Sequence record: OQ067374.1 | Strand: one strand, 5' to 3' | DNA from: Escherichia phage a20 | DNA length: 64,000 nt | Part shown: positions 12,236-43,048 of the stretch, one piece after another | How the letters are laid out: the number at the start of each line of letters is the position of its first letter | Position numbering within the stretch: the stretch's first letter is position 1 | Position numbers and translations under genes: made by a program | Notes under the pieces: model-generated | Told to the model about the DNA's origin: nothing | What the model saw: only the letters and a program-made list of their open reading frames with translations | Databases searched by the model: none

Positions 12236-12266
12236 TAAAATTAAAATGAAGCTCCCGAAGGAGCTT
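12236..12266 (-). terminator. terminator-like hairpin overlapping the stop of the HNH gene
   Basis: aagctcc-cgaa-ggagctt with downstream U-rich tract on minus-strand RNA. Confidence 0.55.
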
Positions 12267-13062
12267 AGGACATCCAACACATTTTATAACCTTTGCAGGT
12301 TCTGTTAGGATTATTTAATGCTTTCAATATATTAGAAGACCCTATATCTAAATACTCTCTTAATTCATAAAGATAGTTAAAATCAATAGTTTCACCTGTT
12401 TTTACACTTGTGATTCTTATAGGCCTTCTTTCATATTTAGATTTATACAACTCTCTAGTCTTAGCTTTAGTTTCTTCCGACCTAGGAGTGTATGGTTTAA
12501 ATCCTTTTGTTTTAAATGTTTCCATTCTTGATTTAGTTATTTTATCCTGGTGTTCTTTTGTTTTTACAGGTGCTTTTCGCCCATTCTCCCAAGATAACTT
12601 GTTGGCCTGTATTATTTTATCTATTGCTTCTTGCGTATGAGTTTTACCATAAAATGGATTTAATTCGCCTATACGTTGTGAAGCAATATGTGACATTAAT
12701 TCTCTTGTTGCTTTAGTATGTTTTTTACCTTTAAATGGGTTGCCGTTTTTAGCAATCCATTCTTTCATAAATCTAGAGTGCTCTTTAGAGAATTCTTGTT
12801 TAAGCCAATCATAATCTCTAGAATTTCTAGCTCCCATGTAAAAAGCTCTAATAGCCATAAGCATAGAACGGTTCTTATGAATTTTATAAAGCAATAAATG
12901 GGCGATAAAATGCTCTCTAGGGGTCATTTTAACTAGATTTGATTTATCATTACTCCCACCCATAGATTTTGGCAATATATGATGTGTCTCAGTATAATTA
13001 GGAATAATGCTGCGGTTTTTAGCCGCAGCGATAAGTTTATCATAAATTTTACGATAATTCAT
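12265..13062 (-). CDS. HNH-family homing endonuclease (Mob-like) with NUMOD3-type repeats
   Basis: ...ETHHILPKSMGGSNDKSNLVKMTPREHFIAHLLLYKIH... plus repeated NPF(Y/K)GK(T/K)HT; start taken at MNYRKIY giving TAATG overlap with gene 39 stop. Confidence 0.8.
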   Translation of the reverse strand: MNYRKIYDKLIAAAKNRSIIPNYTETHHILPKSMGGSNDKSNLVKMTPREHFIAHLLLYKIHKNRSMLMAIRAFYMGARNSRDYDWLKQEFSKEHSRFMKEWIAKNGNPFKGKKHTKATRELMSHIASQRIGELNPFYGKTHTQEAIDKIIQANKLSWENGRKAPVKTKEHQDKITKSRMETFKTKGFKPYTPRSEETKAKTRELYKSKYERRPIRITSVKTGETIDFNYLYELREYLDIGSSNILKALNNPNRTCKGYKMCWMS

Positions 13063-14882
13063 TATCCTAGCATCCAATCTTTACGGAGTTCAGGGTCGTT
13101 ACCCATGAGCATTTCAAATAGTTCTTTCCAATTTTCAGGAAGTTTAACTACGTCGTACACAGGGTTTTGAATCATTTCTTTATATTCATCTCGCTGAAGT
13201 GAGCCCAATCCCTTGATGTATCGAATACTATGCTTAGGCAGTGTATCTTTAGCTTCTTCATACTCAGCTACAGTATAAAACCATTTTTGAGTTTTGCCAA
13301 TTTGTGCAATAATTACAGGCGTTTTAACAAAGCGAATACGTCCTTGTTCAAACAATTCAGGCCAATTACTAAAGAAAGCAAGCAAAGCTGGATAGATACT
13401 TCCAAGACCGTCATGATCGGCATCGGTCATAATTGCAATATTACGATAGTTCGTATTCTCTGCCTTTTCACCAAGAATAAGACCTGTGATAGCACAGATA
13501 TCAAAGAGCTCTTTGTTCTTCATCATATCAGCATATGACATACCCCAGCTATTCATCACCTTACCACGTAATGGGAATCCGCCGTGTAGTTCACGGTCAC
13601 GAACATCAATGAGATAACCAATTGCCGAATCACCTTCTGTTAAAAACAATGTCGTATCTGCATCTTTACCACATTGGTTAGCTTTAATATGCTTATGAAC
13701 CTTAGCTTTAGTTGCCTTTTTAGCTGCTTTAGTTTCTGCAGCCTTTTCTGCCGCCAATTTACGAGCTAATGCTGCTTCAACAATAGGCATAATCAAGGCT
13801 TCGTTTTTAAGAAGTGCCTGAGCAATTTTCTTAGCATCTAATTGGATATGATTACGAATATCACCATACGTTGACGTTAAACGTTCTTTAGTCTGAGAAT
13901 CAAAACGCATGTTGCTCATGTCTCTAATAAACATCAACATTGTGAGACATTCTTTAACACGAGCTTTAGTGACTTCAATACCCTTATATTTCTTTTTAAT
14001 ACCCGGCAAAAGATGTTCACAGATATCATCCATTACACATTCAACATGATGACCACCGTTTTTAGTATGGATGTTATTCACATAAGTTAAATGACGGAAG
14101 CCATCTGGTGATGTTGTGAATGCTATAGAGACTTTATCATTTTCTTGAATGATGTTATCTTCACCAAATTGTTTAGCAAATCGTTTAAAATTACCATCAA
14201 CCTTTTTACCATTAAATGTGAACTTGATATCAGGATAAACGACTGCCAATGTTTGAAGTCGGTCTAAAGTAATATCTAAATAAATTTGAGATAAATTATG
14301 CTCTTCAAATGAAGAGAAATCAGGAGTGAAGATTACTTTAGTGCCTTTACCTTTAGATTTCTTAGAAGACCATGATTTGTTTTCCATTCCGTTTGAACAG
14401 TTAACAGTGATTTCATTTTCGCCATCTGACGTGATGCCTGTAAACAACGTAGAGAAGATATTAGTTAAACTACTCCCGACGCCGTTCATACCACCAGTCT
14501 TGCGTTCAGAGTCATCACCAAAGTTACCACCAGCCTTTGGAATAGTCCAGGCTGCTACAGGCCCAGGAATTTGTTCACCTGTTTGGTCGGTAACTAAACC
14601 TTGAGGAATACCACGTCCGTTATCTTCCACCGAAACTTGATTATTTTTAATTTGCACATCAATTTTATTTGCAAACTTAAATGATGTACGAATAGCTTCA
14701 TCAACCGAGTTGTCAATAATCTCATCGATTAATTTAACCAGACCAGGAACATATTCAACTTGTTGATATTTACCAAACAAAAAACGCTCGTGTGCTTCTT
14801 TAGCCGAAGAACCAATATACATACCACTACGTTTCTTAATATGTTCTACATCTGACAATACCTTAATTTCATTTTTAATCAT
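13062..14882 (-). CDS. 39: DNA topoisomerase II large subunit, unsplit (gp39 fused with gp60-equivalent C-terminus)
   Basis: 606 aa; GyrB-like ATPase motifs (EIIDNSVDEA, VEDNGRGIP, GGxxGxG region) then TOPRIM region LFLTEGDSA...MTDADHDGLGS; one continuous ORF, no gene 60 split. Confidence 0.92.
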   Translation of the reverse strand: MIKNEIKVLSDVEHIKKRSGMYIGSSAKEAHERFLFGKYQQVEYVPGLVKLIDEIIDNSVDEAIRTSFKFANKIDVQIKNNQVSVEDNGRGIPQGLVTDQTGEQIPGPVAAWTIPKAGGNFGDDSERKTGGMNGVGSSLTNIFSTLFTGITSDGENEITVNCSNGMENKSWSSKKSKGKGTKVIFTPDFSSFEEHNLSQIYLDITLDRLQTLAVVYPDIKFTFNGKKVDGNFKRFAKQFGEDNIIQENDKVSIAFTTSPDGFRHLTYVNNIHTKNGGHHVECVMDDICEHLLPGIKKKYKGIEVTKARVKECLTMLMFIRDMSNMRFDSQTKERLTSTYGDIRNHIQLDAKKIAQALLKNEALIMPIVEAALARKLAAEKAAETKAAKKATKAKVHKHIKANQCGKDADTTLFLTEGDSAIGYLIDVRDRELHGGFPLRGKVMNSWGMSYADMMKNKELFDICAITGLILGEKAENTNYRNIAIMTDADHDGLGSIYPALLAFFSNWPELFEQGRIRFVKTPVIIAQIGKTQKWFYTVAEYEEAKDTLPKHSIRYIKGLGSLQRDEYKEMIQNPVYDVVKLPENWKELFEMLMGNDPELRKDWMLG

Positions 14883-24664: not shown

Positions 24665-25186
24665 TCAGTAACCATTATCCTGACGTTCAAAGTTGTGTTG
24701 GTTTTTCAAGTAGTAAAGTTTAAAGATTTCTTCAGCGGAAAGACCCAGACCTTGGAACATATTCAGAACAAAGTGGAGGATATCAATCATCTCGAATTTA
24801 ATTTCAAGCTGGTCTTCAGGAGACAGTTCATCGATACGACGATTTCGATATTCAGCATGTTGTGCTTTCCATGGCTTCCATACAGAGCTAGCGGTTTTCT
24901 CACCATTGCTCATACCACCAAGTGAAGTCAGCAGTTCACGGAATTCATCATCAATATAATCTTTCTGATTACGCAGCCAATCAACAACATCACCAGCAGT
25001 GGCCAATTCATCAGGATGTTTGTTATGTTCAGGCTTGTCATTTGCCAGACGAACCTGTAAAGATTTCTGCATATCAAGCATTACCTGCAGTGGGTCTTTA
25101 TCTTCGTGAATCAGAGCATTAAAATAAGCTTCTTCTGCTTTATCAACACCAGAAATAAGTTGTGAACATTCGTTAAAGTGTGCCAT
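24665..25186 (-). CDS. 56: dCTP/dUTP pyrophosphatase (MazG-like dCTPase, gp56)
   Basis: 173 aa from MAHFNECSQLISGVDKAEEAYF...; longest ORF begins with a non-ATG codon 15 nt upstream; T4 gp56 171 aa. Confidence 0.85.
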   Translation of the reverse strand: MAHFNECSQLISGVDKAEEAYFNALIHEDKDPLQVMLDMQKSLQVRLANDKPEHNKHPDELATAGDVVDWLRNQKDYIDDEFRELLTSLGGMSNGEKTASSVWKPWKAQHAEYRNRRIDELSPEDQLEIKFEMIDILHFVLNMFQGLGLSAEEIFKLYYLKNQHNFERQDNGY

Positions 25187-25274
25187 TATTTTTCCTTTCA
25201 ATTCAGTATAAGAGAGTTAATTCTAACATTAATTTTATAAAGCGTAATAAATAATAGGTAACTAAGGAGATATT

Positions 25275-28967: not shown

Positions 28968-29156
28968 TTATCGAAAATCTGCTTCGAAAACTTTCTCGTC
29001 ATTAACAAATGCTTTAACTAATGCTTTGTTCACTTCAGCAAGTTGTACCGTAACCCACTCGATTTCTTCGCGATCACCTGATAACATCATATCTTTAGTG
29101 AACATCTCACCGCTTTTAAACCAACCGATAAAAGTAACTTTAGTTAATTTGCTCAT
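28968..29156 (-). CDS. dmd: Dmd-like antitoxin (discriminator of mRNA degradation; inhibits host RnlA/LsoA-type toxins)
   Basis: 62 aa from MSKLTKVTFIGWFKSGEMFTKDMM...AEVNKALVKAFVNDEKVFEADFR; recognised from T4 Dmd (60 aa); ATGA overlap with upstream gene. Confidence 0.65.
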   Translation of the reverse strand: MSKLTKVTFIGWFKSGEMFTKDMMLSGDREEIEWVTVQLAEVNKALVKAFVNDEKVFEADFR

Positions 29157-31440: not shown

Positions 31441-31803
31441 TTAAAAGAATTTAAATTTTTTCTTGGTTCGTTCATTAAAAGCTTGTTGTACTTGCATTGT
31501 AACACATTTTTCAACATGTGGTGCAAGTTCTGCTTTTCTGTCCTGGTCAAGAACTGCAAAGTCCATTACGATTTTACCATCAACCCAGTCTAGTTTTGTA
31601 ATATAGACTATATGATGGGAACCGTCTTCAAGTGTAATCAGAATCTCTTGAATGACATTTTCCATTGCTGAACGGATAATTTTAAGAGATTCATTAAACA
31701 CTCGTTCTTTGCGAATGTCTTCCCCTTCCGAAGAAGGGGATTCATCAACGATTTCTAGATTTAAATCATCGAGATTATTCATCGAAATCTTCCATTTCGT
31801 CAA
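31441..31803 (-). CDS. 40: gp40-position protein (head vertex assembly chaperone in T4)
   Basis: 120 aa; synteny between uvsX and 41; no motif verified. Confidence 0.55.
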   Translation of the reverse strand: MTKWKISMNNLDDLNLEIVDESPSSEGEDIRKERVFNESLKIIRSAMENVIQEILITLEDGSHHIVYITKLDWVDGKIVMDFAVLDQDRKAELAPHVEKCVTMQVQQAFNERTKKKFKFF

Positions 31804-32947
31804 GGTCGTTTTCTATATCTGCTGCAGACGGAGCATCAGAAGTTTTAACCGGAACTTTAGTTGTTGCTTTGCAATTAATAAGGTCATTAACAGCGTCATC
31901 AACTTCTTTAATAGAAGAGATAGCACCTAGTTTATATTTAGTTTCAATTGCATCTCGGAAAGGTTTGTGTTTAAACAAAGGTCCCCAGAATTCTACACAA
32001 TCAGTAGCTTTAGCACGCCATGATTTCTCTTCACGAATCATTTCACCTGTTTCTTCGTCAAGGAATTCGCGAGCATACCAACCGGCTTTAGGCTTAACTA
32101 CAAAACCAATTTCAGTTGCCATTTCTAACAAGCCACTGAATGGGTCAATACCGCCATCAAAATTAACCGTGATCGGGAAAGTAGATTTCTCTTTAACTGT
32201 GCGAGATTTTTCTGCTTTCAACGTGAAGTCATAACCGGTCAATTCTGTACCTTCTTTAACCTGACGTTTAGAGATAAAAAATACCGTGTTGGCAGAATAA
32301 AGAATACCTGTACCACCGCCCATAATCTCTTTAGGATACAATCCGCCAATTTCCATTGCTGTATGGTTAATTGCAACACACGGAATATCTTTAATAGTCA
32401 GATACGGGGTCACAATGCGGAACAGAGATTTAAGTGCCTTAGCACGAGACATATCACCTACAACTTTCTCGTTCAATGCATCTTCGGTTTCTTTCTTAGA
32501 TGCAGTATTACCAATCGAGTCAATAAAGATAATAACTTTATCACCGCGTTCAATAGCGTCAAGCTGATTAGTCATATCGACTTTAAGTTGTTCGACAGAT
32601 TGAATCGGAGTATGAACTACACGGTCTAAATCAACACCCATTGAACGAAAATAAGATTCTGAAGCACCGAATTCTGAGTCATAAAACAAACAGATTGCAT
32701 CTTTATATTTCTTCATATACGCTGCAACCATAGTCAGCCCAAACAACGTTTTAAAGTGTTTAGAAGGAGCAGCAAAAATAGTTAAGCCTGATTGCAACCC
32801 TGCATTCAGTGCACCACCTAATGCAATATTCAACATCGGAATACGAGTAGGGACTTCATCACGATTATTAAACAGCTTAGACTTAGTCAAGTCTGCAGTC
32901 ATTTTAGAAGTAGAAGCTTTAATCAGACGAGATTTTAAATCAGACAT
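31775..32947 (-). CDS. uvsX: UvsX recombinase (RecA/Rad51 family)
   Basis: 390 aa; ...GLTIFAAPSKHFKT (Walker A-like) ...; T4 UvsX 391 aa. Confidence 0.92.
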   Translation of the reverse strand: MSDLKSRLIKASTSKMTADLTKSKLFNNRDEVPTRIPMLNIALGGALNAGLQSGLTIFAAPSKHFKTLFGLTMVAAYMKKYKDAICLFYDSEFGASESYFRSMGVDLDRVVHTPIQSVEQLKVDMTNQLDAIERGDKVIIFIDSIGNTASKKETEDALNEKVVGDMSRAKALKSLFRIVTPYLTIKDIPCVAINHTAMEIGGLYPKEIMGGGTGILYSANTVFFISKRQVKEGTELTGYDFTLKAEKSRTVKEKSTFPITVNFDGGIDPFSGLLEMATEIGFVVKPKAGWYAREFLDEETGEMIREEKSWRAKATDCVEFWGPLFKHKPFRDAIETKYKLGAISSIKEVDDAVNDLINCKATTKVPVKTSDAPSAADIENDLDEMEDFDE

Positions 32948-33045: not shown

Positions 33046-33594
33046 TTAACGAGCCCATTTGATGATTTCTGTAATCAAAACATTACGTTCGCTTGCATTA
33101 AATCCTATAACTTTGTTAGCACCATCATGATTAAGTAATTGATACGTTTGGATTTTGTTATGAATTGCAAACTCTTCAAAATGTGAAATGACTGTATTAA
33201 AACCGAATGAAGACAAAGTAATAAGGTCGTCTTCAAAACTTTCAGTCATTTCGTTACGTGTTAAAATAATTGTGAACACATCATGGTTTTGGCAAAGACG
33301 AACATAATCCTGTTCATAAACGTCAAGAACCGAGTCCGCATCTTGTCGAATACGTCCATAAACCCAGTTACTAATATATCCACGGTCTAACAGATAAATC
33401 TTAGTAGGGTCTAAATAATTCAACATCGTTTCGAAACAGCCAACTTCATTTCGAGACTTAACATCGAAACGTCCATCAACTGTTCGTTTAGGGAAATCAA
33501 TCTTTACATATCTTTCACTAATTTCCATTATGTCATTAATGAAAGTTGTTTTACCAGCATTATCCGGGCCATCTACTAAAATAATTTTAGCCAT
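33046..33594 (-). CDS. P-loop nucleotide/nucleoside monophosphate kinase-like protein (thymidylate-kinase-like)
   Basis: 182 aa; Walker A LVDGPDNAGKTT and LLDRGYIS (DR-Y motif) as in dNMP/thymidylate kinases. Confidence 0.55.
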   Translation of the reverse strand: MAKIILVDGPDNAGKTTFINDIMEISERYVKIDFPKRTVDGRFDVKSRNEVGCFETMLNYLDPTKIYLLDRGYISNWVYGRIRQDADSVLDVYEQDYVRLCQNHDVFTIILTRNEMTESFEDDLITLSSFGFNTVISHFEEFAIHNKIQTYQLLNHDGANKVIGFNASERNVLITEIIKWAR

Positions 33595-33595
33595 T

Positions 33596-34495
33596 TTATT
33601 CCTCGATTACGACATCTTCATATTTAGGTATATTATACGGTGAAGAAATTAAAGCATTAAAGTAGATGAACTCACCAAGACCTGGATGAAATACTTCTTC
33701 AGGATTTTCGAAATATTGAATCTTCGGACGTCCTTTAAGAATTTGATAGTATTCAGTTTTAGTTGGTTTAAAAATTCGAATCAACGCTTCTTCAGGATAC
33801 TTATTTCTGTCGAAGCTATTATTTGGATCGGTTATATAAAGCGGTTGGCCTAATTGAATTGCACATTCAACCACTTGTTCAAAACGATAGCATGGGTCAC
33901 TAATTCGAAATGGATGAAAAATACCATCTAGATGAATAGGAGCCAAATCACCTACAAGACGCTGCATGATGGAAGGACGTATAACTTTCTGCGTTACGAT
34001 AATCTTATTACCATCTGCACCTGCGTTAACCAGCACTTCTTTTTGACGTTCATTCAACACAGTAGTTTGAAGTGAACGATTAACCGACAACATATCGGTT
34101 TTTAAGAATTCGTCAATATAAAAACGTGGTTTATTAGGGTCTGCAGTGATATTGAAATTGAATTCTACATCAAAAGCGCCGTCATATCCGGTGATATCTG
34201 TGATTAGAAAATCACAATCATAATAAGCAATTAATGAATCAACCACAAATTCATTTTCAGTCCAGAAATATTTACGAGTGTTATACGCGTTATCTTTATA
34301 CCATAATGGAACAAACTTAAATTCTGGGAAAAGACGTTCACATTCTTTAATATCAGATGCATTACGTGGATATGTAATCACATCACCTGGATTAGCACGG
34401 TGCAAATGAAGTTGGAAGTTGCCATCCTTAAGGATAGCATACTGCCCAGTTTCATAAGACCGCATACTCAAAATAGGTACGCGGAAAATAGCCAT
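33596..34495 (-). CDS. protein of unassigned family occupying the T4 beta-glucosyltransferase position (candidate DNA-modifying transferase)
   Basis: 299 aa; no motif recognised; adjacent to the hydroxymethylase; T4 has bgt between uvsX and 42. Confidence 0.5.
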   Translation of the reverse strand: MAIFRVPILSMRSYETGQYAILKDGNFQLHLHRANPGDVITYPRNASDIKECERLFPEFKFVPLWYKDNAYNTRKYFWTENEFVVDSLIAYYDCDFLITDITGYDGAFDVEFNFNITADPNKPRFYIDEFLKTDMLSVNRSLQTTVLNERQKEVLVNAGADGNKIIVTQKVIRPSIMQRLVGDLAPIHLDGIFHPFRISDPCYRFEQVVECAIQLGQPLYITDPNNSFDRNKYPEEALIRIFKPTKTEYYQILKGRPKIQYFENPEEVFHPGLGEFIYFNALISSPYNIPKYEDVVIEE

Positions 34496-35211
34496 TAGTC
34501 AAGGAATCCTTTAACATAATCAAAATCACGTTCAAACACATGGGCACTTACCATGGTATGAGTATAATCACCAACTTCTACACCACATTCGTTAGCGATA
34601 TAATGAAGTAATTTTCCTTGGAGATAAAAATCCAACTGCATAACAACAGCACAGTTCTGAGAACGCATATGACAGTGGGTATAAAGCTTACCATCACGAA
34701 TATAATAAGTCACTGAGTCAGTACATGGATATTCAAGAGTTTCGTCCGAATCAAGCAAAGCCTGATCAGAACTTTCTAGAATTTGGAACACAACTCTTCG
34801 AGAGTTAGGCTTCTCTTTAAGTTCTTTTAGAAGAGCTGGTAATTGGGCCGCAATGCGAGGACCATAGAAAGTGTTGAAGTTCGCCGGCAAAACATCTGAT
34901 TTTGGTTTAGAAATAAATTTAGCGACATTAGGATATGCCTTAAACGCTTCTTCTGCGTTGGTACCACCAGAAATCATAAACTTCCAGAAGTCTTCGGCAT
35001 ATTCATAAGAGATGCGGTTAATACGTGGGTCAGTCATTTTGAATGATGATGGAGTGTCAACAACTACTGTCATAGACCCAATTTCATTACAACGTCCAAT
35101 ACGAGAATCAGTTACGAATTCCGGGTTTTCTAAAATTTCACGATTGACTGCTTTAAATGCGGTTTGAAAATCTGCGGCTTTGATATATTTCATTGTGTTA
35201 TGTTTTCCCAT
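34495..35211 (-). CDS. 42: thymidylate-synthase-superfamily pyrimidine hydroxymethylase (gp42-like, divergent)
   Basis: 238 aa; ...KPNSRRVVFQI...EYPCTDSVTYYIRDGKLYTHCHMRSQN... (catalytic Cys context and R-S-x-N/D region of TS/dCMP-HMase fold); position of T4 gene 42. Confidence 0.7.
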   Translation of the reverse strand: MGKHNTMKYIKAADFQTAFKAVNREILENPEFVTDSRIGRCNEIGSMTVVVDTPSSFKMTDPRINRISYEYAEDFWKFMISGGTNAEEAFKAYPNVAKFISKPKSDVLPANFNTFYGPRIAAQLPALLKELKEKPNSRRVVFQILESSDQALLDSDETLEYPCTDSVTYYIRDGKLYTHCHMRSQNCAVVMQLDFYLQGKLLHYIANECGVEVGDYTHTMVSAHVFERDFDYVKGFLD

Positions 35212-35253
35212 GTTTACCTCAATACAATTTATTATATACTCAATTCATAAAGC

Positions 35254-35493
35254 TTATTTGAATTTCTTAGCGATGTTGATATAACGTAAAGCTTCAGCAT
35301 CGATACTTCCAAGAACACTATGAAGAAATGCATCAGCGTAGTATTCCAATTGAACAGGTTCTTTAATCACTTTAGCCGCTTTGGTTCCAAACAGGCCCAT
35401 AAGGGCCTTTTTAAGAATTTGTTCATTAGTGTTCAGTTTCATAGTCAAAATCTCTTCATTAAGTTGGTGGTTAAAAGTTTTTCTAGAAATCAT
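35254..35493 (-). CDS. hypothetical small protein
   Basis: ORF track, 79 aa. Confidence 0.45.
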   Translation of the reverse strand: MISRKTFNHQLNEEILTMKLNTNEQILKKALMGLFGTKAAKVIKEPVQLEYYADAFLHSVLGSIDAEALRYINIAKKFK

Positions 35494-36650
35494 TCTGGGT
35501 ACCTCAAAGCGTCATCAGAGTTAGTTATATCAATAATAGATATAGAATTTTCTGATAACCCATTTTTAGATAACTGACGTTTATAATATCTTTCACAATA
35601 TGTACACGTCGTCCCGCAGATTTCATTAGCACAATCGAAATCTGGATGTCTGAACCACCTTTTTTCTAAAAAGCCATCTAACAAAGAGGTTTCAATATTT
35701 ACTGTATGTGAAAACTCAGTTTCGTTTTCAAGAGTGAAAATAGTCTCTAAAGGCTTCCACAGTTCTAACAAATTACCTTCAAACTTTTCAGAAGCGTATG
35801 CTTCAAGAACTTTCAAAATGTAGTCTGTGCTACCTGTACGTCCTGAAACTTTGAATTGAGTGATACCAATATCATTATAAAGTTTCAAATCTTGAGGACG
35901 AACAAAACGAGTTCTCAACCAGTTAAATGGGTCTGTATCACGAGCTTTAATGCAGTGTTGCATTGGATATCCGTTTAAGGATTTAGCATCATCAGCTGTA
36001 ACATCAGTACTATGGAAAATATAGCAAGAGTCACGATAGCTACAATGTGTTGTATACCCTTTACCAGCATTAGAACAGAACTCATTTACAAGAACTTCAA
36101 ATATTATATTGTTCTTATTGCAAAACTCTGCTGCACGCTTCAGGAAAGAAACTGAACGGTTCTTATGAATTCCACAGCAGACCTTTTTGATATTATATTG
36201 GTCATGCAAGTATTTGATTTGAGTTACAGCATCGACATGTAGAATTGTTGAAACTTCAATCTCAATGTCTTTATTGACTTCACGAACAATTTCCATAACA
36301 ACAGGGTTAGCGATAGTAATACGCCATACGCCTATTGACCAAAGATACTGAACATAATCCTGAATAGCTTTCTTCTTCCACTCAACTAGTTCTCTTTTTG
36401 AACCAGGATTTATCGTGTTGAGTGTATAGTTAAAGCAAATACCTAATTCGTTACAACGTTTAACGTAATCTTCTAACATCTTTTTGTCAACGTCAGGAAG
36501 CCTAAAATCAGGTCTGGCTGCTACAAAAGCCATTTCTCTTGTAGAGCCGTATACTTCGTTTATCAAGCTATTAGGATAAGTTTTATTGAGCTCTACGATT
36601 TTATCAAGAAGAGCTAAATCAAAATTCGTTCCAATTTTAAAAGTATTCAT
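35490..36650 (-). CDS. Cys-rich putative Fe-S enzyme of unassigned family
   Basis: 386 aa; clusters KKVCCGIH, EFCSNAGKGYTTHCSYRDSCY and C-terminal DCANEICGTTCTYCERYY (contains a CxxxCxxC spacing). Confidence 0.5.
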   Translation of the reverse strand: MNTFKIGTNFDLALLDKIVELNKTYPNSLINEVYGSTREMAFVAARPDFRLPDVDKKMLEDYVKRCNELGICFNYTLNTINPGSKRELVEWKKKAIQDYVQYLWSIGVWRITIANPVVMEIVREVNKDIEIEVSTILHVDAVTQIKYLHDQYNIKKVCCGIHKNRSVSFLKRAAEFCNKNNIIFEVLVNEFCSNAGKGYTTHCSYRDSCYIFHSTDVTADDAKSLNGYPMQHCIKARDTDPFNWLRTRFVRPQDLKLYNDIGITQFKVSGRTGSTDYILKVLEAYASEKFEGNLLELWKPLETIFTLENETEFSHTVNIETSLLDGFLEKRWFRHPDFDCANEICGTTCTYCERYYKRQLSKNGLSENSISIIDITNSDDALRYPE

Positions 36651-36707
36651 TTTTTTTGCATCTCACGTTAATTGATGCGATGGTTTTTGCAGGTCTTACT
36701 TAAATTA

Positions 36708-37097
36708 TTATAGATTCGGTTTATATGATTTAAATGTTTCGAATTCGCCTTTATTCATAAGAGCTTTGAATTCGTCAGGACGCATAGCTTTGTCGTCGAT
36801 AATCCAATCATATACTGGTTTATGTGTTAGCAAATTATGGTACTTCAAACCAATGTTTTCCAAGTTCTGAATCAGACTTGGGAGAATGTCAATTGCTATA
36901 CGTCCAGGACCTACTGACTTCATACCGCGAGCAGTGTAAAGCGTTATGGTATGCCCTGCATCATACAGAGCATTAATAGCAGTCACCATTTCGACGTCTG
37001 GTTTGAAGTTCACGTAATCACGATTGTTATTCCACTCTGTTATACAATCATCGACGTCCACGCAAAGATGTAATGGTTTCATAGCAATATCCTTCAA
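36708..37097 (-). CDS. small HAD-superfamily phosphatase
   Basis: 129 aa; motif I LCVDVDDCIT (DxDx[T/V]), ITLYTAR, and K...IIDD; start may be the ATG 15 nt downstream. Confidence 0.6.
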   Translation of the reverse strand: MKDIAMKPLHLCVDVDDCITEWNNNRDYVNFKPDVEMVTAINALYDAGHTITLYTARGMKSVGPGRIAIDILPSLIQNLENIGLKYHNLLTHKPVYDWIIDDKAMRPDEFKALMNKGEFETFKSYKPNL

Positions 37098-37809
37098 TAG
37101 AATTTTTAATATTATCAGCTATACGCTTTCTAGGAATACCCGTTTTCTTTTCAGCTATCCTAAGAGATTCATAGTAATTTTCGTTTATTTTAACAAATTT
37201 TTGAGACTTGTGAGCATTTTTGCTTTCGTCCTGATATCGATAATTAAGATATTTAGGCGATTTTACTCTCTTTTGAATCGTGGCAGAAGATATACCCAAA
37301 TCTTTAGCCGCTTCCCGACAGGATTCATAATATTTGCCATCTACATTAATCTTTAGACCATGTAATGCAGGTTTACCATACCTCCTGTGCTTTTCTTTAC
37401 CCCTAGCTATAGATTCAGCTGACAAAGTTTTACCCCATCTTGGGTTTTTATCACCAACTAAACGTCCTTTATTTGCCTTAGAAATTTTATCCTTGGACCT
37501 TTGGGATAACCCGTCAGAACCGCCTTCGCCACCAGTTTTAAGATTGTAATAATTTGGGTCTTTAACTATGTCTAATGTTATTAGAGCCTTTTCAGCTATT
37601 TTTAATTCTTCTCTCGAGCTATGGTAGGAAATGATTTCTTTAAGAAAATTTTCCTTCCCGTATTTCCTTTCAGCCTTTTTATATAATTTACCAGAACCTT
37701 TATATAAATCTAAAGGCTCGGCTTCTTCAGCCGAGTGCATTCCTAAATAAACTTTACCGTTTATAAGATTAGTAGTTTTGTAGAGATAATGTATCAAATT
37801 CGTTCCCAT
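37048..37809 (-). CDS. GIY-YIG homing endonuclease (Seg-like)
   Basis: 253 aa; N-terminal HYLYKTTNLINGKVYLGMHS...YKGSG (GIY-YIG module), basic DNA-binding C-terminal region; overlaps both neighbours. Confidence 0.8.
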   Translation of the reverse strand: MGTNLIHYLYKTTNLINGKVYLGMHSAEEAEPLDLYKGSGKLYKKAERKYGKENFLKEIISYHSSREELKIAEKALITLDIVKDPNYYNLKTGGEGGSDGLSQRSKDKISKANKGRLVGDKNPRWGKTLSAESIARGKEKHRRYGKPALHGLKINVDGKYYESCREAAKDLGISSATIQKRVKSPKYLNYRYQDESKNAHKSQKFVKINENYYESLRIAEKKTGIPRKRIADNIKNSIEGYCYETITSLRGRR

Positions 37810-39479
37810 TGATGAGTGATATCGCCACCGATTGGACGATAGGAAACACCAGTTTCTTTATCAGTTAGTACCCATTTACCAGGATTTTTTGTAATCAGAG
37901 TAGCCGTTACAGGTTCTGCTACGTCATAACTAATAGAGCCGTCTTGAAGTACACGGCCCATATTACGTAATTGCTTAGTCAGAAGTTCCATACCTTTATA
38001 ATATGCGGCTACCGCTTTAAGTGGATTATTCTTGAAATAACCACCTAATGCAATCCAGATAATTGCCACTGCCAAATGATGATACTCGTTAAACGAACTC
38101 ATCTTTCCATATTTGTAAACTAATGGATTGATGTTAATAGTCACATTACAAGTTGTTTCATCAATAGTAAACTGTCCCCAGGTCGGATTAGCATTGAATT
38201 CATCATAACCTGAAACAGCATAAAGCACTTTAGCTTCATCATACAATTTTGGCCCGTAAATCTTGGTTTCGCCAAAATATCCACGAGGGTCGATAAACTT
38301 AACTTCGCCGTTATCAGTAATCATAGTATTACTGAAGTTCGGGTCACCATGAATAACAGAGTACTGTCCCTGAGAACGGTTATGATAACGAATAAGATGT
38401 TCTAAAGCTTGTTTCAGCATTGGCTTCAGACGTCCAATCTTAGTGTAGTTCACATGTGTGATTTTACCAAATGAATCAATCAATGGTTGAATGCTTTCAC
38501 AACGATCAATAACTTTCGTATAGAATTCTTTAGTGAAATCACGACGAACAGTTTCAGGACTTACAAAATAAGTGTCTGTGCTGAATTTCAGTGCATCTAA
38601 AATTGTATCAACAATTTGTGGACGAGCAAGACTTGATTTGGATTTAATATATTCAAATGCCGGCTTACCTTTAATGCGTTCCATTTCAAAGTTATTTTCA
38701 TTAACAGAAACTAACTGAGGGACTGAATCTGATTTCACTTTCAAATACCACGAAATCTCATCTTTCTGAAGAGCTCGGCCCTGTTCGGTTAATGCGAATT
38801 TAGTTACAGTTTCTTCACCGATTTCAACTGCATTAAAACTACGATTAAGTTCACGAACTTCATGAGCTTTTTCAAGTTTAGGCATATCACCTAAATCAAT
38901 TAGATTCATAAGCTCTGATTTATTGAATGCGCCGCTGTAAAGGAATTCTACGAAATCACGTCCTTTGCAGTATTCATGAATTTCTTCATCAGTAGAACCC
39001 ATATAGAATTCCCAGTCTTTGAACTGATAAATTCCTACAACATTACCACCTGTTGAACCTACGTTAGTGATATTTTCACCGTCGAAATTATATCGACATT
39101 CGTCGCCCTTAACATAGATTGCGTTAACATTCCAAGACCATGAACCAAAATCGGGAATAATATCACACCAGTTAACAATTACATTATGGCCGTCTAAATC
39201 TTTGTGTAATTTAGCAAGAGCATAAGCAGATCCATACGCTTCATCAACTGTACGAATAGTCACATTGAACCCTTCTTGCTCACAATAAGCTCGAACAGTT
39301 TCAGCAAATTTTGAATGAACTACTACAATAATTTCATCTGCGCCTAGGTCAGAATAAATTGTATACAAATTGCTCAGAATAGTGTCTTGTTTATAGTTAA
39401 CAAGCACCTTAGGAATATGGTGAGTAATTGGATATAAACGAGTTGCCAGTCCAGCACCAAGAATAACAGCTTTTTTCAT
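37794..39479 (-). CDS. bifunctional sugar-1-phosphate nucleotidyltransferase (N-terminal) / APH-ChoK-type kinase (C-terminal)
   Basis: 561 aa; N-term MKKAVILGAGLATRLYPIT...PKVLV (G-x-G-x-x-R-L nucleotidyltransferase signature, LicC/RmlA-like); C-term HGDPNFSNTMIT...VKFIDPRGY (Brenner HxDxxxxN and DxxG of aminoglycoside/choline kinase fold). Confidence 0.7.
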   Translation of the reverse strand: MKKAVILGAGLATRLYPITHHIPKVLVNYKQDTILSNLYTIYSDLGADEIIVVVHSKFAETVRAYCEQEGFNVTIRTVDEAYGSAYALAKLHKDLDGHNVIVNWCDIIPDFGSWSWNVNAIYVKGDECRYNFDGENITNVGSTGGNVVGIYQFKDWEFYMGSTDEEIHEYCKGRDFVEFLYSGAFNKSELMNLIDLGDMPKLEKAHEVRELNRSFNAVEIGEETVTKFALTEQGRALQKDEISWYLKVKSDSVPQLVSVNENNFEMERIKGKPAFEYIKSKSSLARPQIVDTILDALKFSTDTYFVSPETVRRDFTKEFYTKVIDRCESIQPLIDSFGKITHVNYTKIGRLKPMLKQALEHLIRYHNRSQGQYSVIHGDPNFSNTMITDNGEVKFIDPRGYFGETKIYGPKLYDEAKVLYAVSGYDEFNANPTWGQFTIDETTCNVTININPLVYKYGKMSSFNEYHHLAVAIIWIALGGYFKNNPLKAVAAYYKGMELLTKQLRNMGRVLQDGSISYDVAEPVTATLITKNPGKWVLTDKETGVSYRPIGGDITHQWERI

Positions 39480-39520
39480 GTTGTGGTCCTCATTGGTAAG
39501 TAGGAGTATTGTACACTATT

Positions 39521-39664
39521 CTAGTTAAAGCATTCATACTTTGCTTGTAGTCCAATCATAATCCATCCAATTACAAGTGTTGGAATCATTACCGGAGCCG
39601 TTAAGCTCCAGTAGATAGTCATGACAAGCATCAATAGTAAAAGTCCTATTGCTATTGCTTTCAT
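39521..39664 (-). CDS. small hydrophobic membrane peptide (47 aa) between the sugar-isomerase gene and the fused kinase gene
   Basis: Hand-translated MKAIAIGLLLLMLVMTIYWSLTAPVMIPTLVIGWIMIGLQAKYECFN; TAATG overlap with SIS gene stop; imm-like position. Confidence 0.4.
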   Translation of the reverse strand: MKAIAIGLLLLMLVMTIYWSLTAPVMIPTLVIGWIMIGLQAKYECFN

Positions 39665-40296
39665 TATTCGCCTCGTAACATGGCACCTAGTGCACCACCA
39701 GGGTGGAACTTAAGGAAATCATTAGAGGTAAATCCACGTTCAGACGAAAGGTTGATAGCAAACGTATCGATAAGCGCTAACAACAATGTAGTGGACATAG
39801 TCGGAGCCAGAGAATTCTCATCAACCTCTACTGCGATGCCTGTACAGAAAGAGTAATCAAAAAGGGCTTCATTTTCTTGTGGAATGTCTGGGTTACAATG
39901 CAACAGAATCTGTTTGACGTTCGGACGAATCATTTTAAGATGCTTAGCCACGCCTATCATTTCTTCAGTTTTACCAGAACGACTAATATGAATCAACACA
40001 TCATTAGGCGCAATGAATCCTGCATCACCGTGAGAATAATGCCCAGTGTTCAAGTACATACTCGGGATACCTAGTGAAGCAAAAGTCTCGGAAGCTTTAG
40101 TTGCGATATTAGCATTCTTACCAACACCTGTAATAATTACTCGGCTTTCATAATTACTAAGTCCCGGGCGTCGAAGAGTTTCTAGAATAGCATTATAACG
40201 AGCAGGGTTTTGACTAATTACTTTGGCCATAGCGGCCAAAGAAGAAGCTTGTTTTATGATTGCGTCAATAGCGATAGTAATAGGAGTAGTTTTCAT
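39664..40296 (-). CDS. single-domain SIS sugar-phosphate isomerase, KdsD/GutQ-type (arabinose-5-phosphate isomerase-like)
   Basis: 210 aa; VIITGVGKNANIATKASETFASLGIPSMYLN...SHGDAGFIAPNDVLIHISRSGKTEE...LAPTMSTTLLLAL...GFTSNDFLKFHPGGALG closely parallels KdsD core motifs; lacks CBS domains. Confidence 0.8.
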   Translation of the reverse strand: MKTTPITIAIDAIIKQASSLAAMAKVISQNPARYNAILETLRRPGLSNYESRVIITGVGKNANIATKASETFASLGIPSMYLNTGHYSHGDAGFIAPNDVLIHISRSGKTEEMIGVAKHLKMIRPNVKQILLHCNPDIPQENEALFDYSFCTGIAVEVDENSLAPTMSTTLLLALIDTFAINLSSERGFTSNDFLKFHPGGALGAMLRGE

Positions 40297-40336: not shown

Positions 40337-43048
40337 TCAAAAATCGAACATATCGAACAGAGATGCTTTCTTCTCGTAATCGAGTTTCGCTGCTGATGTG
40401 AATCCTTCAAGTGGTTTAATAAATGTCTTCTCAAGGAGAACAGTGTAGTCCATCCAATGAAGTACGTCGTCTTTAATTAAATCTGTGATTTCAGTGCCAG
40501 AAGGCCATGCGATACATTTATCACCGAATGGGTTTCCTTCACGTAAAGGCAGAACATATACTTTTTCACCTTCTACAACTTGCGGTGCATCGATATTACC
40601 TTTGATAGCCCGGTTATATGTCAGAATTCCACGAATATGGAACGGACATTTGGGACCAGGGAATCCACCTACGTCATATTTAGCAATGTTATTCGCAGAA
40701 GATACCGACGCGATGCTAATATAATTCAATTGGCGGAATTCTTTTTCAAACTCTTTAAAATATTCTTGTAATGATTCTTCACCTTCTTGAAGCATACGAC
40801 GAATACATTCTTTAAGAGCTTTCTGTACTGCTTTAGGAGTCGAAGATTTCTGTGTTTCGAGACCCATGATTTTAAGCTTAGGTTCAGCGTATCTGGTTCC
40901 TTCCATATCCCACACGTTTAATGCATAACGTTTCTTACCAGTCCAGAATCCACCAATACCTTTAGAACCGAGCGGAGGACCAGCGATAGCTTCTCGGTCC
41001 ATGAACATCAAATGTTGCTTATTATTCATGTATTCGCACATTTCACGGAAACCTCTATCAATAGCAGGTTCCATACGTTCACGAGCGAACTTATCTAAGA
41101 AGTCTACCCAATGGTTGGTATCACGGAATTTAGATTCACCAACCTTATCGATAATTTTATCAGCAGATACGTAAATAGAGTCTGTATCACCATATAGAAC
41201 GAAAGCTTCACCTTCTGTACCACAAACTTCATTCAGATATTCATTAACTTTACGTTCAATCCACTGTAAAGCCATTTGACCAAATGTTGTGATTGCAGTA
41301 GCATTACGCAAATCATAATAACGGAACCAAACGTTGCCAAGTGCACCATAAAGTGAGTTGATAAGCAATTTACGGTTAATCTGTGCAGTCATACCTGCAA
41401 CTTCAGTACGTTGAGCTCTAAACAACATTTCATTAAGAGATTTAGCAGACAACTTTTTAATCTTTTCTTTAATCTCATCACTGAAGTCGAAACGATAATC
41501 AACATCTAATGGTTCGTCAACAGAAAGATTAGGATTATGCAATGCCTCTTTAATTATTTCACCATTACGTTGAGCTGCAAGCATGTAACCTTTATGTTCT
41601 TTACGTTGATTAAAGACCTTAGTGATTTCAGTTGGAACTACACCATCACGGTCTTTATAATACATCATGCCGTTAGGAGAGCAACTGTACACATCTGAAG
41701 GACGTTCAGCGATTGCGTTAATATAATCATGCAGTGGAGCTACTTTAAACGTTCCTGCTATTGTTTCCGGGCTAATATTCACTTGGCGAATAATACTTGG
41801 ATACAGAGATGTAAGGTCGAAACTCATTACATATTTGTATCGATTTGGAATAGGTTCCTTAACAAAAGCGCCAGGATAAGGTTGAACCGGGTGAGAACGA
41901 CCTTGTGGAATCACCTTGTTCTGCTCTTTAAGGCTATTAAAAATAATAGCATCCCATGTTTTAATTGGACTGAACACAGATTGAATCTGAATTTTAGCAT
42001 AATAACCCATGTCCAAGCTCAAGTTAATGAACTGGCGTTTAGCATCAATTTGCAATACACGATATACGTCGATGATGTTATAGCTTATATATCGTTGATG
42101 ATTACTTTCGCGAAGTTTAGAAATAGGACCGTCATATTTCAGTTTACCAACGTTCAATTCAAATTCTGAAATGTAATCCAGAGAATACGACGGTTGATTG
42201 GTAAAAGAGAATTTTTTGTAAAGGTCAATGTAATCAAGAACAGAGATACCGAACAATGTAATGATTTCACGAGAACCATACATGTTTTCGATAACTTTAA
42301 CACGAGTTTTACGATGCGGTGATAAACGTTTCGCAGTAGATTCGCCAAAAATATTCTTGATTCGGTTATACACATATGGAATATCAAATGACTCAACGTT
42401 CCATCCAGTCAAAATGACAGGAGTTTTCTGTTGCCAGAAGTTGAGATATTCCATCAACAATTCTTTTTCGTTATCGAACGGCATATAAATGATTTTATCG
42501 ATAATTTCAGATGGAACTTCATCACCGCCTTGTTCTTGAAGCTTAGCAGCGATTTCAATAGACCATTCTTCTACATTACCATACGGAGAATTCAATAGAT
42601 CAAATACGTAGAACCTGTCGTCAATTGAGTCATAATGGGTGATAGCATCAATCGGATGTTTTGCTTGTGACGGCTCAGGGAACCCATCCGGAGATGTTAC
42701 TTCGATGTCGAAGTTAGCCACACGAATTTTTGTATGGTCGTATTTGATTTCATAGTTATAAGTGTCAGACAAATACGCCAATTTGAAATCGTCCATGCCA
42801 AGTGCTTCAAGTCCGATATCTTCCATGCGTTTAATCCATTGGGAGGCATCACGCATATTAGCGAACAACTTACGAGTACACGGTTTACCGTAGATATCGA
42901 AATATTTCGTAGCCTGACTTTCTGGACAATGAGCAAACAGTGATGGTTTATATTCTACTTCACGAGTACGTTCACGGCCATTAGAATCGATGTAACGTTC
43001 AAAAATTGAATCACCAATCTGTTCAACCGTTAAGTAAAATTCTTTCAT
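40337..43048 (-). CDS. 43: family-B DNA polymerase with 3'-5' exonuclease (gp43), RB69-type
   Basis: 903 aa; exo motifs FDIEV / YNIIDV, polymerase motifs DxxSLYPS, K(x3)NSxYG, YGDTDS; N-terminus MKEFYLTVEQIGDSIFERYIDSNGRERTREV. Confidence 0.97.
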   Translation of the reverse strand: MKEFYLTVEQIGDSIFERYIDSNGRERTREVEYKPSLFAHCPESQATKYFDIYGKPCTRKLFANMRDASQWIKRMEDIGLEALGMDDFKLAYLSDTYNYEIKYDHTKIRVANFDIEVTSPDGFPEPSQAKHPIDAITHYDSIDDRFYVFDLLNSPYGNVEEWSIEIAAKLQEQGGDEVPSEIIDKIIYMPFDNEKELLMEYLNFWQQKTPVILTGWNVESFDIPYVYNRIKNIFGESTAKRLSPHRKTRVKVIENMYGSREIITLFGISVLDYIDLYKKFSFTNQPSYSLDYISEFELNVGKLKYDGPISKLRESNHQRYISYNIIDVYRVLQIDAKRQFINLSLDMGYYAKIQIQSVFSPIKTWDAIIFNSLKEQNKVIPQGRSHPVQPYPGAFVKEPIPNRYKYVMSFDLTSLYPSIIRQVNISPETIAGTFKVAPLHDYINAIAERPSDVYSCSPNGMMYYKDRDGVVPTEITKVFNQRKEHKGYMLAAQRNGEIIKEALHNPNLSVDEPLDVDYRFDFSDEIKEKIKKLSAKSLNEMLFRAQRTEVAGMTAQINRKLLINSLYGALGNVWFRYYDLRNATAITTFGQMALQWIERKVNEYLNEVCGTEGEAFVLYGDTDSIYVSADKIIDKVGESKFRDTNHWVDFLDKFARERMEPAIDRGFREMCEYMNNKQHLMFMDREAIAGPPLGSKGIGGFWTGKKRYALNVWDMEGTRYAEPKLKIMGLETQKSSTPKAVQKALKECIRRMLQEGEESLQEYFKEFEKEFRQLNYISIASVSSANNIAKYDVGGFPGPKCPFHIRGILTYNRAIKGNIDAPQVVEGEKVYVLPLREGNPFGDKCIAWPSGTEITDLIKDDVLHWMDYTVLLEKTFIKPLEGFTSAAKLDYEKKASLFDMFDF

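Follow-up and report, generated by a model that had tools for sequence, protein, structure and literature searches.

The block of genes studied here lies at positions 33046-40296 of a stretch of 64,000 nucleotides from Escherichia phage a20 (sequence record OQ067374.1), the whole of which is called the window below. It is a run of co-directional open reading frames (ORFs) on the minus strand of the ORF list, whose starts and stops overlap or abut so that the genes are tightly packed, and it is flanked by uvsX (31775-32947) and by the gene of a family-B DNA polymerase (40337-43048). An earlier reading made from the letters of the window, hereafter the sequence-only reading, took the block for a candidate DNA sugar-hypermodification system of an RB69-type phage, and this general assignment stands. 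At the DNA level the block shares 99.0% identity with Escherichia phage NRG-P0074, about 98% with RB69 and 98-99% with over 150 sequenced phages (Mosigvirus genomes), which rules out chance for the block, and its gene order is that of the annotated copies in RB69 and NRG-P0074. Judged by sequence identity and gene order, the block is that of a Mosigvirus (RB69-like) phage, and it encodes a conserved protein of the U32 family, which we discuss as a putative anoxic hydroxylase.

Gene content of the block

All seven proteins named by the sequence-only reading were found as co-directional minus-strand ORFs in the block. From the polymerase side to uvsX these are a single-domain SIS arabinose-5-phosphate isomerase of 210 amino acids (aa; 39664-40296; homolog of RB69 gp55), a fused nucleotidyltransferase/kinase of 561 aa (37794-39479; RB69 gp52:53, the equivalent of AfhE in phage HY126), a small HAD phosphatase (36708-37097; RB69 gp51, HY126 AfhF), a putative Fe-S protein of the U32 family with 386 aa (35490-36650; RB69 gp50), a thymidylate synthase (TS) homolog of 238 aa (34495-35211; RB69 gp48), a predicted GT-B glycosyltransferase of 299 aa (33596-34495; RB69 gp46:47) and a P-loop, thymidylate kinase (TMK)-like nucleotide kinase of 182 aa (33046-33594; RB69 gp45). 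That inventory left out a GIY-YIG homing endonuclease of 253 aa (37048-37809), a 79-aa ORF (35254-35493; RB69 gp49; phrog_8601, of unknown function) and a small ORF of about 47-50 aa at the position of RB69 ORF054c (39534-39686), which is hypothetical in NRG-P0074 and RB69 and has no PHROG match; these three are likewise on the minus strand.

Two more minus-strand genes that bear on the system lie outside the block. The 366-aa protein that the sequence-only reading named together with the block is a second glycosyltransferase located at 11122-12222, between rIIA and topoisomerase (homolog of RB69 gp3/ORF003c; phrog_8302 and the annotation of NRG-P0074), and a dCTP pyrophosphatase (dCTPase; 24665-25201) is the homolog of T4 gp56 and RB69 gp28, annotated in NRG-P0074 as NTP pyrophosphohydrolase. 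The synteny claimed with T4 was also read correctly, the T4 map of the same slot being uvsX-segA-bgt (beta-glucosyltransferase)-42-imm-imm.1-43, and so was the absence of T4-type glucosyltransferases: in a tblastn search of the whole window neither the alpha- nor the beta-glucosyltransferase of T4 gave a match at E<=1, and the T4 flanking proteins gp47 and gp55 matched it at 76% and 91%.

The arabinosyl-5-hydroxycytosine pathway

The block is very probably the Mosigvirus pathway that replaces cytosine with mono- and di-arabinofuranosyl-5-hydroxycytosine. This pathway has already been published, in papers of 2025-2026, and the block as it was flagged is a known system: the arabinosyl-5-hydroxycytosine system of RB69, HY126, Bas46-47 and NP (RB69 gp45-gp55 and gp3; the 'Afh' genes of HY126) corresponds to it gene for gene and in gene order, at 98-99% DNA identity. 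Work by others on near-identical proteins, some of which are crystallised (PDB 9iqc, 9ir2, 9iqu and 9iqw), has established the DNA chemistry and the activities of hydroxylase, kinase/pyrophosphorylase and phosphatase, so that the statement that the enzymology could not be assigned from established annotation does not hold. The roles of the isomerase, of the two transferases and of the P-loop kinase are our inference.

In this pathway, the dCTPase would deplete dCTP and supply dCMP, which the TS-superfamily enzyme would hydroxylate at C5 with flavin and O2, and a dNMP kinase with an NDP kinase would lead to 5-hydroxy-dCTP (5hodCTP) for incorporation by the polymerase. On the side of the sugar, the SIS isomerase would convert ribulose-5-phosphate (Ru5P) to arabinose-5-phosphate (A5P), the kinase domain of the 561-aa protein would form arabinose-1,5-bisphosphate, the HAD phosphatase would strip the 5-phosphate to leave arabinose-1-phosphate (Ara-1-P), and the nucleotidyltransferase domain of the 561-aa protein would yield UDP-arabinofuranose. 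The 299-aa GT-B enzyme would transfer the first arabinose onto the 5-OH and the 366-aa glycosyltransferase would add the second. The sugar route drawn by the sequence-only reading survives as far as the passage from Ru5P through A5P to an NDP-pentose is concerned, but not in its order, which put dephosphorylation first; the order reported, as relayed in PMC13326640, is kinase, phosphatase and then uridylyltransferase.

The base branch turns on the TS homolog (PF00303), which had been taken for a gp42-type hydroxymethylase that forms 5-hydroxymethylcytosine (hmC). It is identical to RB69 gp48 at 236 of its 238 positions, and it matches PDB 9iqc, 9ir2 and 9iqu at E of about 1e-160, with about six positions differing. 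In the numbering of E. coli ThyA it keeps the catalytic C146 and has L143E, D169N, N177D and W80A, which in the window protein are the catalytic C163, E160, N186, D194 and A97, whereas T4 gp42 keeps D171 and W82 where the window enzyme has N186 and A97. The hydroxylase signature D169N/N177D/L143E, as defined in PMC13326640, is present in the window protein, and the features of a folate-dependent gp42-type hydroxymethylase (Asp at ThyA position 169 and Trp80) are absent from it. It was reported that RB69 gp48 makes 5-hydroxy-dCMP (5hodCMP) from dCMP with oxygen coming from 18O2 and with flavin bound, and that E. coli expressing it contains 5hodC (Lee et al., NAR 2026; PMC13326640); a crystal structure, and reconstitution in vitro with the HY126 enzyme, are credited there to He et al. 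(Nat Chem Biol 2026). By these residues and this degree of identity, the window protein is a flavin- and O2-dependent dCMP 5-hydroxylase (5hodCMP synthase) and not a hydroxymethylase.

The same evidence bears on the acceptor of the sugar, for which hmC had been assumed. In 2018 arabinosyl-hmC was reported in RB69 (PMC6024577), and one might still suppose that a gp42-type enzyme makes hmdCMP and that the block arabinosylates hmC, given that the TS-superfamily enzyme has the dCMP-specifying Asp (N177D) and L143E as T4 gp42 does and that the block fills the bgt/42 slot. This is now very improbable. RB69 DNA was found by liquid chromatography-mass spectrometry (LC-MS) and nuclear magnetic resonance (NMR) to contain mono- and di-arabinosylated 5-hydroxycytosine, with the sugar joined by an ether bond to an oxygen directly on C5, the ether link from 5-hydroxycytosine being shown by NMR, MS and 18O2 labelling, and RB69 gp48 forms 5hodC in E. 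coli (PMC13326640). Another Mosigvirus, NP, has 5-ara-dC and 5-ara-ara-dC, and its authors call the hmC assignment erroneous (PMC13390438); the residues D169N and the missing folate-site Trp80 set the window protein apart from T4 gp42 as well. The acceptor is 5-hydroxycytosine, and from the identity of 98-99% we expect the virion DNA of the window phage to have its C replaced by mono- and di-arabinosyl-5-hydroxycytosine. For the dCTPase, Table 1 of PMC13326640 gives the corresponding role to the gp56/gp28-type enzyme.

Compared with the T4 glucosyl-hmC system (gp42, alpha- and beta-glucosyltransferases, gp56 dCTPase and gp1 kinase), which occupies the same slot from uvsX to gene 43, the window system shares the alteration of dCMP by a TS-superfamily enzyme before replication, the exclusion of dCTP by a dCTPase and the use of a UDP-sugar donor. 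It would differ in hydroxylating the base (flavin/O2, D169N, no folate-site Trp) instead of hydroxymethylating it, in using a pentofuranose made by phage enzymes while T4 uses host UDP-glucose, and in its GT-B transferases, whose sequences show no relationship to those of a-gt and b-gt.

With regard to the sugar branch, the SIS protein (PF01380; phrog_5670) scores 112.9 bits with TIGR00393 (KpsF/GutQ) and 107.6 bits with KdsD, the lack of CBS domains keeping both scores under the equivalog cut-offs, and for its homolog RB69 gp55 the conversion of Ru5P to arabinofuranose-5-phosphate is proposed in PMC13326640. The 561-aa protein matches PF00483 at residues 3-99, NCBIfam nucleotidyltransferases, and PDB 1jyk together with other NDP-sugar pyrophosphorylases; its C-terminal half is APH/choline/aminoglycoside-kinase-like, with weak matches to Pfam kinase families at residues 308-409. 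The HAD phosphatase matches TIGR01689 (capsule biosynthesis phosphatase), PDB 9iqw (E 8.5e-80 over residues 8-129) and 1xpj (E 7e-11), and its true start is likely the ATG at 37082, giving 124 aa. As summarised in PMC13326640 from He et al. (2026), the bifunctional enzyme turns A5P into Ara-1,5-P2, the HAD enzyme turns this into Ara-1-P, and UDP-arabinofuranose (UDP-Araf) follows. By domains and RB69 gene order, the window thus has the predicted gene set of the UDP-arabinofuranose branch, namely the SIS, fused kinase/nucleotidyltransferase and HAD genes.

For the transfer steps, the 299-aa protein has no match in Pfam, NCBIfam or PDB sequences, and its AlphaFold2 (AF2) model (pLDDT 95.1) has a GT-B fold, with MshA (3c4q), GT4 mannosyltransferases and UDP-GlcNAc 2-epimerases as the best Foldseek matches, the same as reported by Lee et al.; the suggestion that it is a candidate transferase in the bgt slot gains from this. 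In PMC13326640 its type is proposed, not demonstrated, as the first (base-proximal) arabinosyltransferase and the RB69 gp3 homolog as the second, and the window has one predicted GT-B-type DNA arabinosyltransferase gene of each kind (gp46:47 type and gp3 type). The P-loop kinase matches phrog_761 'thymidylate kinase' (E 3.7e-45) and, weakly and at the P-loop, TIGR00041. Little counts against the pathway as a whole, namely the first transferase step, which was not reconstituted in PMC13326640, and this kinase at 33046-33594, which has no assigned substrate; a dNMP kinase of the RB69 gp1 type was already reported to phosphorylate 5hodCMP.

The window differs from the RB69-type system in two further respects. 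It adds the GIY-YIG homing endonuclease (Pfam I-TevI DNA-binding, NUMOD1, NUMOD3 and SegE GIY-YIG), which is annotated as a homing endonuclease in NRG-P0074 and lies on an insertion of about 720 bp (about 37070-37789) that has no counterpart in RB69 (a gap in blastn). The gene sits between the HAD and nucleotidyltransferase/kinase genes, overlapping the annotated ends of both, and it is outside the sugar/base pathway; RB69 and most Mosigvirus genomes lack the insertion and cover 90% of the block in two pieces. A 270-aa ORF with an HNH-type motif at 12265-13077, labelled 'homing endonuclease' in NRG-P0074, lies between the gene of the topoisomerase large subunit and that of the 366-aa glycosyltransferase, so that a mobile endonuclease stands beside each modification locus of the phage. 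Furthermore, the 299-aa glycosyltransferase and 561-aa nucleotidyltransferase/kinase genes are both intact in the window, whereas in the RB69 record (NC_004928) an extra A at 24953 splits the former into ORF046/047 and an extra G at 29126 splits the latter into ORF052/053, which accounts for the split ORFs 46/47 and 52/53 of RB69; the literature regards the extra bases as sequencing errors, and the comparison with the window agrees with this.

The U32 protein and its gene neighbourhoods

The 386-aa protein carries a Peptidase_U32 domain (PF01136) at 42.2 bits against a gathering score (GA) of 22.4, and its AF2 model (pLDDT 93.6, pTM 0.92) is a U32 TIM-barrel whose best match in PDB is 5d88 (U32 protein Mk0906; E 1.4e-7), the only solved U32 structure; a PDB sequence search gave no match. 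Domain and predicted fold are therefore those of the U32 family. The protein is 100% identical to its HY126 counterpart and is the most conserved one of the block across T4-like genera, with a median identity of 85%; the hydroxylase stands at 80%, DNA polymerase at 71% and the other block proteins at 60-72%. In 108 homologs of at least 46% identity nine cysteines are invariant (C158, C192, C203, C209, C233, C340, C345, C349 and C352) and C177 is conserved at 97%, which bears out the suggestion of a Cys-rich putative Fe-S protein; by this pattern it is plausibly an Fe-S protein. As to the position of the first ligand, the preceding strand aligns among UbiU (LEVFAFGSLC169), TrhP (IEIFVHGALC170) and the phage protein (FEVLVNEFC192), and from this alignment C192 is judged to stand at the position of UbiU C169 and TrhP C170. 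The invariant C-terminal CX4CX3CX2C (C340, C345, C349 and C352) is absent from the characterised E. coli U32 hydroxylases; its last three cysteines resemble a CX3CX2C cluster-binding motif with an aromatic residue, which suggests a second metal or Fe-S site. The 79-aa ORF, whose start overlaps the U32 stop, is found in 162 phage records and evolves fast.

Among phage records, the TS-type hydroxylase occurs in 345 and the U32 protein in 221. Acinetobacter is a strict aerobe, and 57 records of Acinetobacter phages have the hydroxylase with the HAD and TS genes abutting and no U32 gene between them. The clusters of Acinetobacter phage DLP3/Lazarusvirus and of Dhakavirus share with the window the SIS, nucleotidyltransferase/kinase, HAD and TS hydroxylase genes, the glycosyltransferase of the Aat1 family and the TMK-like kinase, but lack U32, the 79-aa ORF and chorismate mutase (CM), with HAD and TS abutting; DLP3 carries a third arabinose through extra glycosyltransferases (PMC13326640). 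The U32 gene is thus an accessory cassette whose presence follows host lifestyle only in part. A strict rule that U32 is present if and only if the host is a facultative anaerobe was rejected on account of the Dhakavirus coliphages without U32.

Apart from T4-like phages there is a large divergent group of U32 homologs, about 360 aa long and 40-58% identical, carried by phage contigs that reach 466 kb. We examined 40 divergent loci over 8-10 kb on either side of U32, together with 15 T4-like loci (55 in all). A homolog of the 299-aa glycosyltransferase (Aat1 family) was found in 24 of the 40 divergent loci, the fused nucleotidyltransferase/kinase in 17, the SIS isomerase in 10 and a TET-associated glycosyltransferase (TAGT) in two, some of these loci being near-duplicates so that the counts are not independent. 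No TS-type hydroxylase was seen within these 8-10 kb, beyond which one could still sit in the contigs, and the single TS-family match was a canonical ThyA. Loci with glycosyltransferase and sugar genes and no TS hydroxylase suggest that U32 is there in the place that the hydroxylase holds in T4-like clusters. The TMK-like P-loop gene accompanies the U32/glycosyltransferase clusters in every T4-like case and in most divergent loci (L008, L013-L016 and L034-L065).

Several divergent loci have features of their own. At L014 (8001-10000) and L042 the U32 stop overlaps the start of the TAGT gene (PF20691, above GA), no TET/JBP gene is visible, and genes of UDP-galactopyranose mutase and dUTPase/DCD are nearby, which suggests a hydroxylase-transferase pair with U32 replacing TET. 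A radical-SAM/SPASM gene lies within about 2-4 kb of U32 in several loci (L015:5980-7011, L016:5972-7000, L009:12160-13185 and L008:1-249), and L009 has in addition a second, distant U32 paralog and genes for NT5C, dNK and nucleoside 2-deoxyribosyltransferase.

Chorismate mutase is the enzyme that forms prephenate, and its gene adjoins U32 in 24 of the 55 loci (13/15 T4-like, 11/40 divergent). The divergent cases comprise five with CM fused to DAHP synthase (DAHPS) and six jumbo-phage loci with a stand-alone CM ORF directly after U32; all CM ORFs tested exceed the Pfam gathering score (36-86 bits against a GA of 27). In the T4-like loci CM is an unannotated ORF of about 80 aa with a chorismate-mutase profile between the U32 and hydroxylase genes. 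Such type II ORFs (CM_2, 36-48 bits) lie about 1.1-1.5 kb downstream of the U32 start in L022-L033 and L035, are labelled 'hypothetical protein' (for example L023:11161-11397 and L025:11131-11400), and belong to phages of Klebsiella, Enterobacter, Pectobacterium, Yersinia, Proteus and Serratia. The 79-aa ORF of the window was considered as a CM and rejected, for it has no Pfam match, reaches 0.4% in hhalign against the CM_2 set, and coexists with a true CM_2 ORF in PM2/TG1-type phages.

The order in L050 is glycosyltransferase, TMK-like kinase, SIS, nucleotidyltransferase/kinase, a fusion of DAHP synthase and type II CM (PF00793 84.8 bits, PF01817 86 bits), HAD and U32. In this cluster (L050:3626-12386; IMGVR_UViG_3300011005_000048, 199 kb) a radical-SAM-like gene precedes the glycosyltransferase and an RNase_T exonuclease gene follows U32, with no TS homolog in view, and similar clusters are present in L046, L047, L049 and L060. 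The alternative that the DAHP_synth_1 protein beside U32 is a Kdo-8-P synthase using A5P is disfavoured by 237 bits for DAHPS against 63 for KDO8PS and by the CM fusion in five loci. The nearest named cellular relatives of the DAHPS-CM fusion are from Bacteroidota (Parabacteroides, Odoribacter, Paludibacter and Bacteroidales metagenome-assembled genomes), which suggests that the U32-only phages have anaerobic hosts.

Proposed function of the U32 protein

In our judgement the chances are about evenly balanced that the U32 protein is a prephenate-dependent, O2-independent deoxypyrimidine C5-hydroxylase, a proposal that we draw from the distribution of genes and from the known members of the family. 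RlhA is needed for ho5C2501 in 23S rRNA and TrhP for ho5U34 in tRNA (PMC5727448, PMC6599085), and UbiU/UbiV are required for the three hydroxylations of anaerobic ubiquinone synthesis. These U32 hydroxylases are O2-independent and Fe-S-dependent, with prephenate shown as the oxygen donor for UbiU/V and proposed as such for the whole family (PMC5727448, PMC6599085, PMC6747719, PMC10990095). The phage protein shares with RlhA, TrhP, UbiU and UbiV the U32 domain, the TIM-barrel fold, a Cys set consistent with Fe-S binding and the position of the first Cys; the pyrimidine C5 hydroxylation of RlhA and TrhP is the very chemistry proposed for it, and its genomic link to CM fits the prephenate requirement of the family. 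It is from this family character together with the CM gene adjoining U32 in other phages that a prephenate-dependent role is proposed, with a deoxynucleotide or DNA as substrate instead of the substrates of the four known enzymes.

The U32 protein would then hydroxylate C5 of a deoxypyrimidine, in a nucleotide or in DNA, with prephenate as the oxygen donor and without O2. In phages of facultative anaerobes it would stand beside the TS-type enzyme, which uses O2 and flavin, as an aerobic/anaerobic pair, and in a large and so far undescribed group of phages of anaerobes, probably infecting Bacteroidales, it would act alone, with the phage CM or DAHP synthase providing prephenate, to create the hydroxyl acceptor for DNA glycosylation; DNA modification would thereby be possible in anoxic hosts. 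NrdAB and NrdDG of T4-like phages are likewise paired aerobic and anaerobic enzymes. Consistently, the TS-only clusters include those of Acinetobacter phages and the U32-only clusters carry the Bacteroidales-type DAHPS-CM. There are precedents in TrhO/TrhP and UbiI-H-F/UbiU-V, where O2-dependent and O2-independent enzymes serve one product and are co-encoded in organisms facing variable oxygen (PMC6599085, PMC6747719); compared with these pairs, the redundancy of TS and U32 in phages is a hypothesis from gene distribution.

Several observations weigh against this proposal. The similarity to characterised members is marginal: BLASTP of the U32 protein against E. coli RlhA, TrhP, UbiU and UbiV was not significant (E >= 0.05), and hhalign gave a probability of 19% for TrhP and 6% for UbiU, with the N-terminal barrel alone aligned. 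The spacing C192/C203/C209/C233 is CX10CX5CX23C and does not keep the canonical CX6CX15CX3/4C (in UbiU it is CX6CX16CX38C). About 40 Escherichia phage records of the Dhakavirus type have the hydroxylase without U32. The window has no CM and Mosigvirus no type II CM ORF, so that its U32 protein would depend on host prephenate. The overlap among the divergent loci and the limited span viewed around each, mentioned above, count here too. The literature that was read leaves gp50 unassigned, but a role may already be given to it, or ruled out, by He et al. (2026) or by Mahler et al. (2025), which were not part of that reading. A search for Afh gene names or for a link between U32 and phages gave nothing further, and the Thanatos paper has no genetics on the U32 gene. 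In addition, the NCBIfam UbiU model scores 18.5 bits against a cut-off of 440, mapping the Fe-S cysteines by BLASTP or MAFFT alignment to the four E. coli proteins was not significant or unreliable, and the phage protein has the extra CX4CX3CX2C and lacks the C-terminal domains of RlhA and TrhP. With no significant relationship to any characterised U32 hydroxylase found, the phage protein is by its sequence a separate and distinct subfamily.

What else the U32 protein might do is best considered against its gene contexts. Its place may be in the sugar branch, where instead of hydroxylating the base it would reduce a sugar or heterocycle or assist the synthesis of UDP-arabinose, a view that we hold to be unlikely though the first among the alternatives. 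Published labels lean this way: Table 1 of Lee et al. calls RB69 gp50 a 'sugar or heterocycle reductase', undiscussed in the text, where pathways including a U32-family one are mentioned without link to gp50 (PMC13326640), and the BASEL phage records call the protein a 'putative enzyme involved in UDP-arabinose biosynthesis'. The gene also lies between HAD and TS, and it has epimerase-like genes as neighbours in L013 and L011. But the synthesis of UDP-Ara from A5P is reported, as relayed in PMC13326640, to require only the AfhE and AfhF equivalents, and the Acinetobacter and Dhakavirus phages share the sugar genes without U32, DLP3 among them having been measured to contain the same arabinosyl-5hoC. 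Moreover, activity on sugars is not known from any member of the U32 family, the linkage to CM has no obvious place in pentose activation, and in L008, L011, L015 and L016 the neighbours are dCMP deaminase, TMK and DNA polymerase and not sugar genes.

It is less probable still that the protein hydroxylates host or phage RNA to ho5C or ho5U in the manner of RlhA and TrhP, tuning translation during infection without relation to DNA modification. The sole nucleic-acid substrates known for the family are indeed C2501 of 23S rRNA and U34 of tRNA (PMC5727448, PMC6599085), but in each of the 15 T4-like loci the gene forms part of the DNA-modification operon, in 24 of the 40 divergent ones it adjoins DNA-type glycosyltransferases (Aat1 family, TAGT), often with stop and start overlapping, and the protein has neither the C-terminal extensions of RlhA and TrhP nor more than marginal similarity to them. 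That it is a collagenase-like peptidase, as the database labels 'peptidase' and 'collagenase-like PrtC protease' have it, or a non-functional passenger is hardly credible for the most conserved protein of the block, above DNA polymerase, with nine invariant and one near-invariant Cys in 108 sequences down to 46% identity, a conserved context of nucleotide and glycosylation genes, and a family that has been reinterpreted as Fe-S hydroxylases.

DNA with arabinosylated 5-hydroxycytosine resists many restriction enzymes and differs in its sensitivity to type IV systems and further defences, which is relevant to phage therapy since Mosigvirus phages are frequent therapeutic candidates. The published hydroxylase requires O2, yet these phages replicate in gut bacteria, and an anoxic route by the U32 protein, if true, would explain this. 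In that case a U32 hydroxylase would for the first time have DNA or a deoxynucleotide as its substrate, prephenate-dependent hydroxylation would reach beyond RNA and quinones to the precursors of DNA, and the formation of O-glycosylated hydroxypyrimidine DNA without oxygen would be explained; the route would also predict a widespread and unexplored class of glycosylated-hydroxypyrimidine DNA in the phages of anaerobes.

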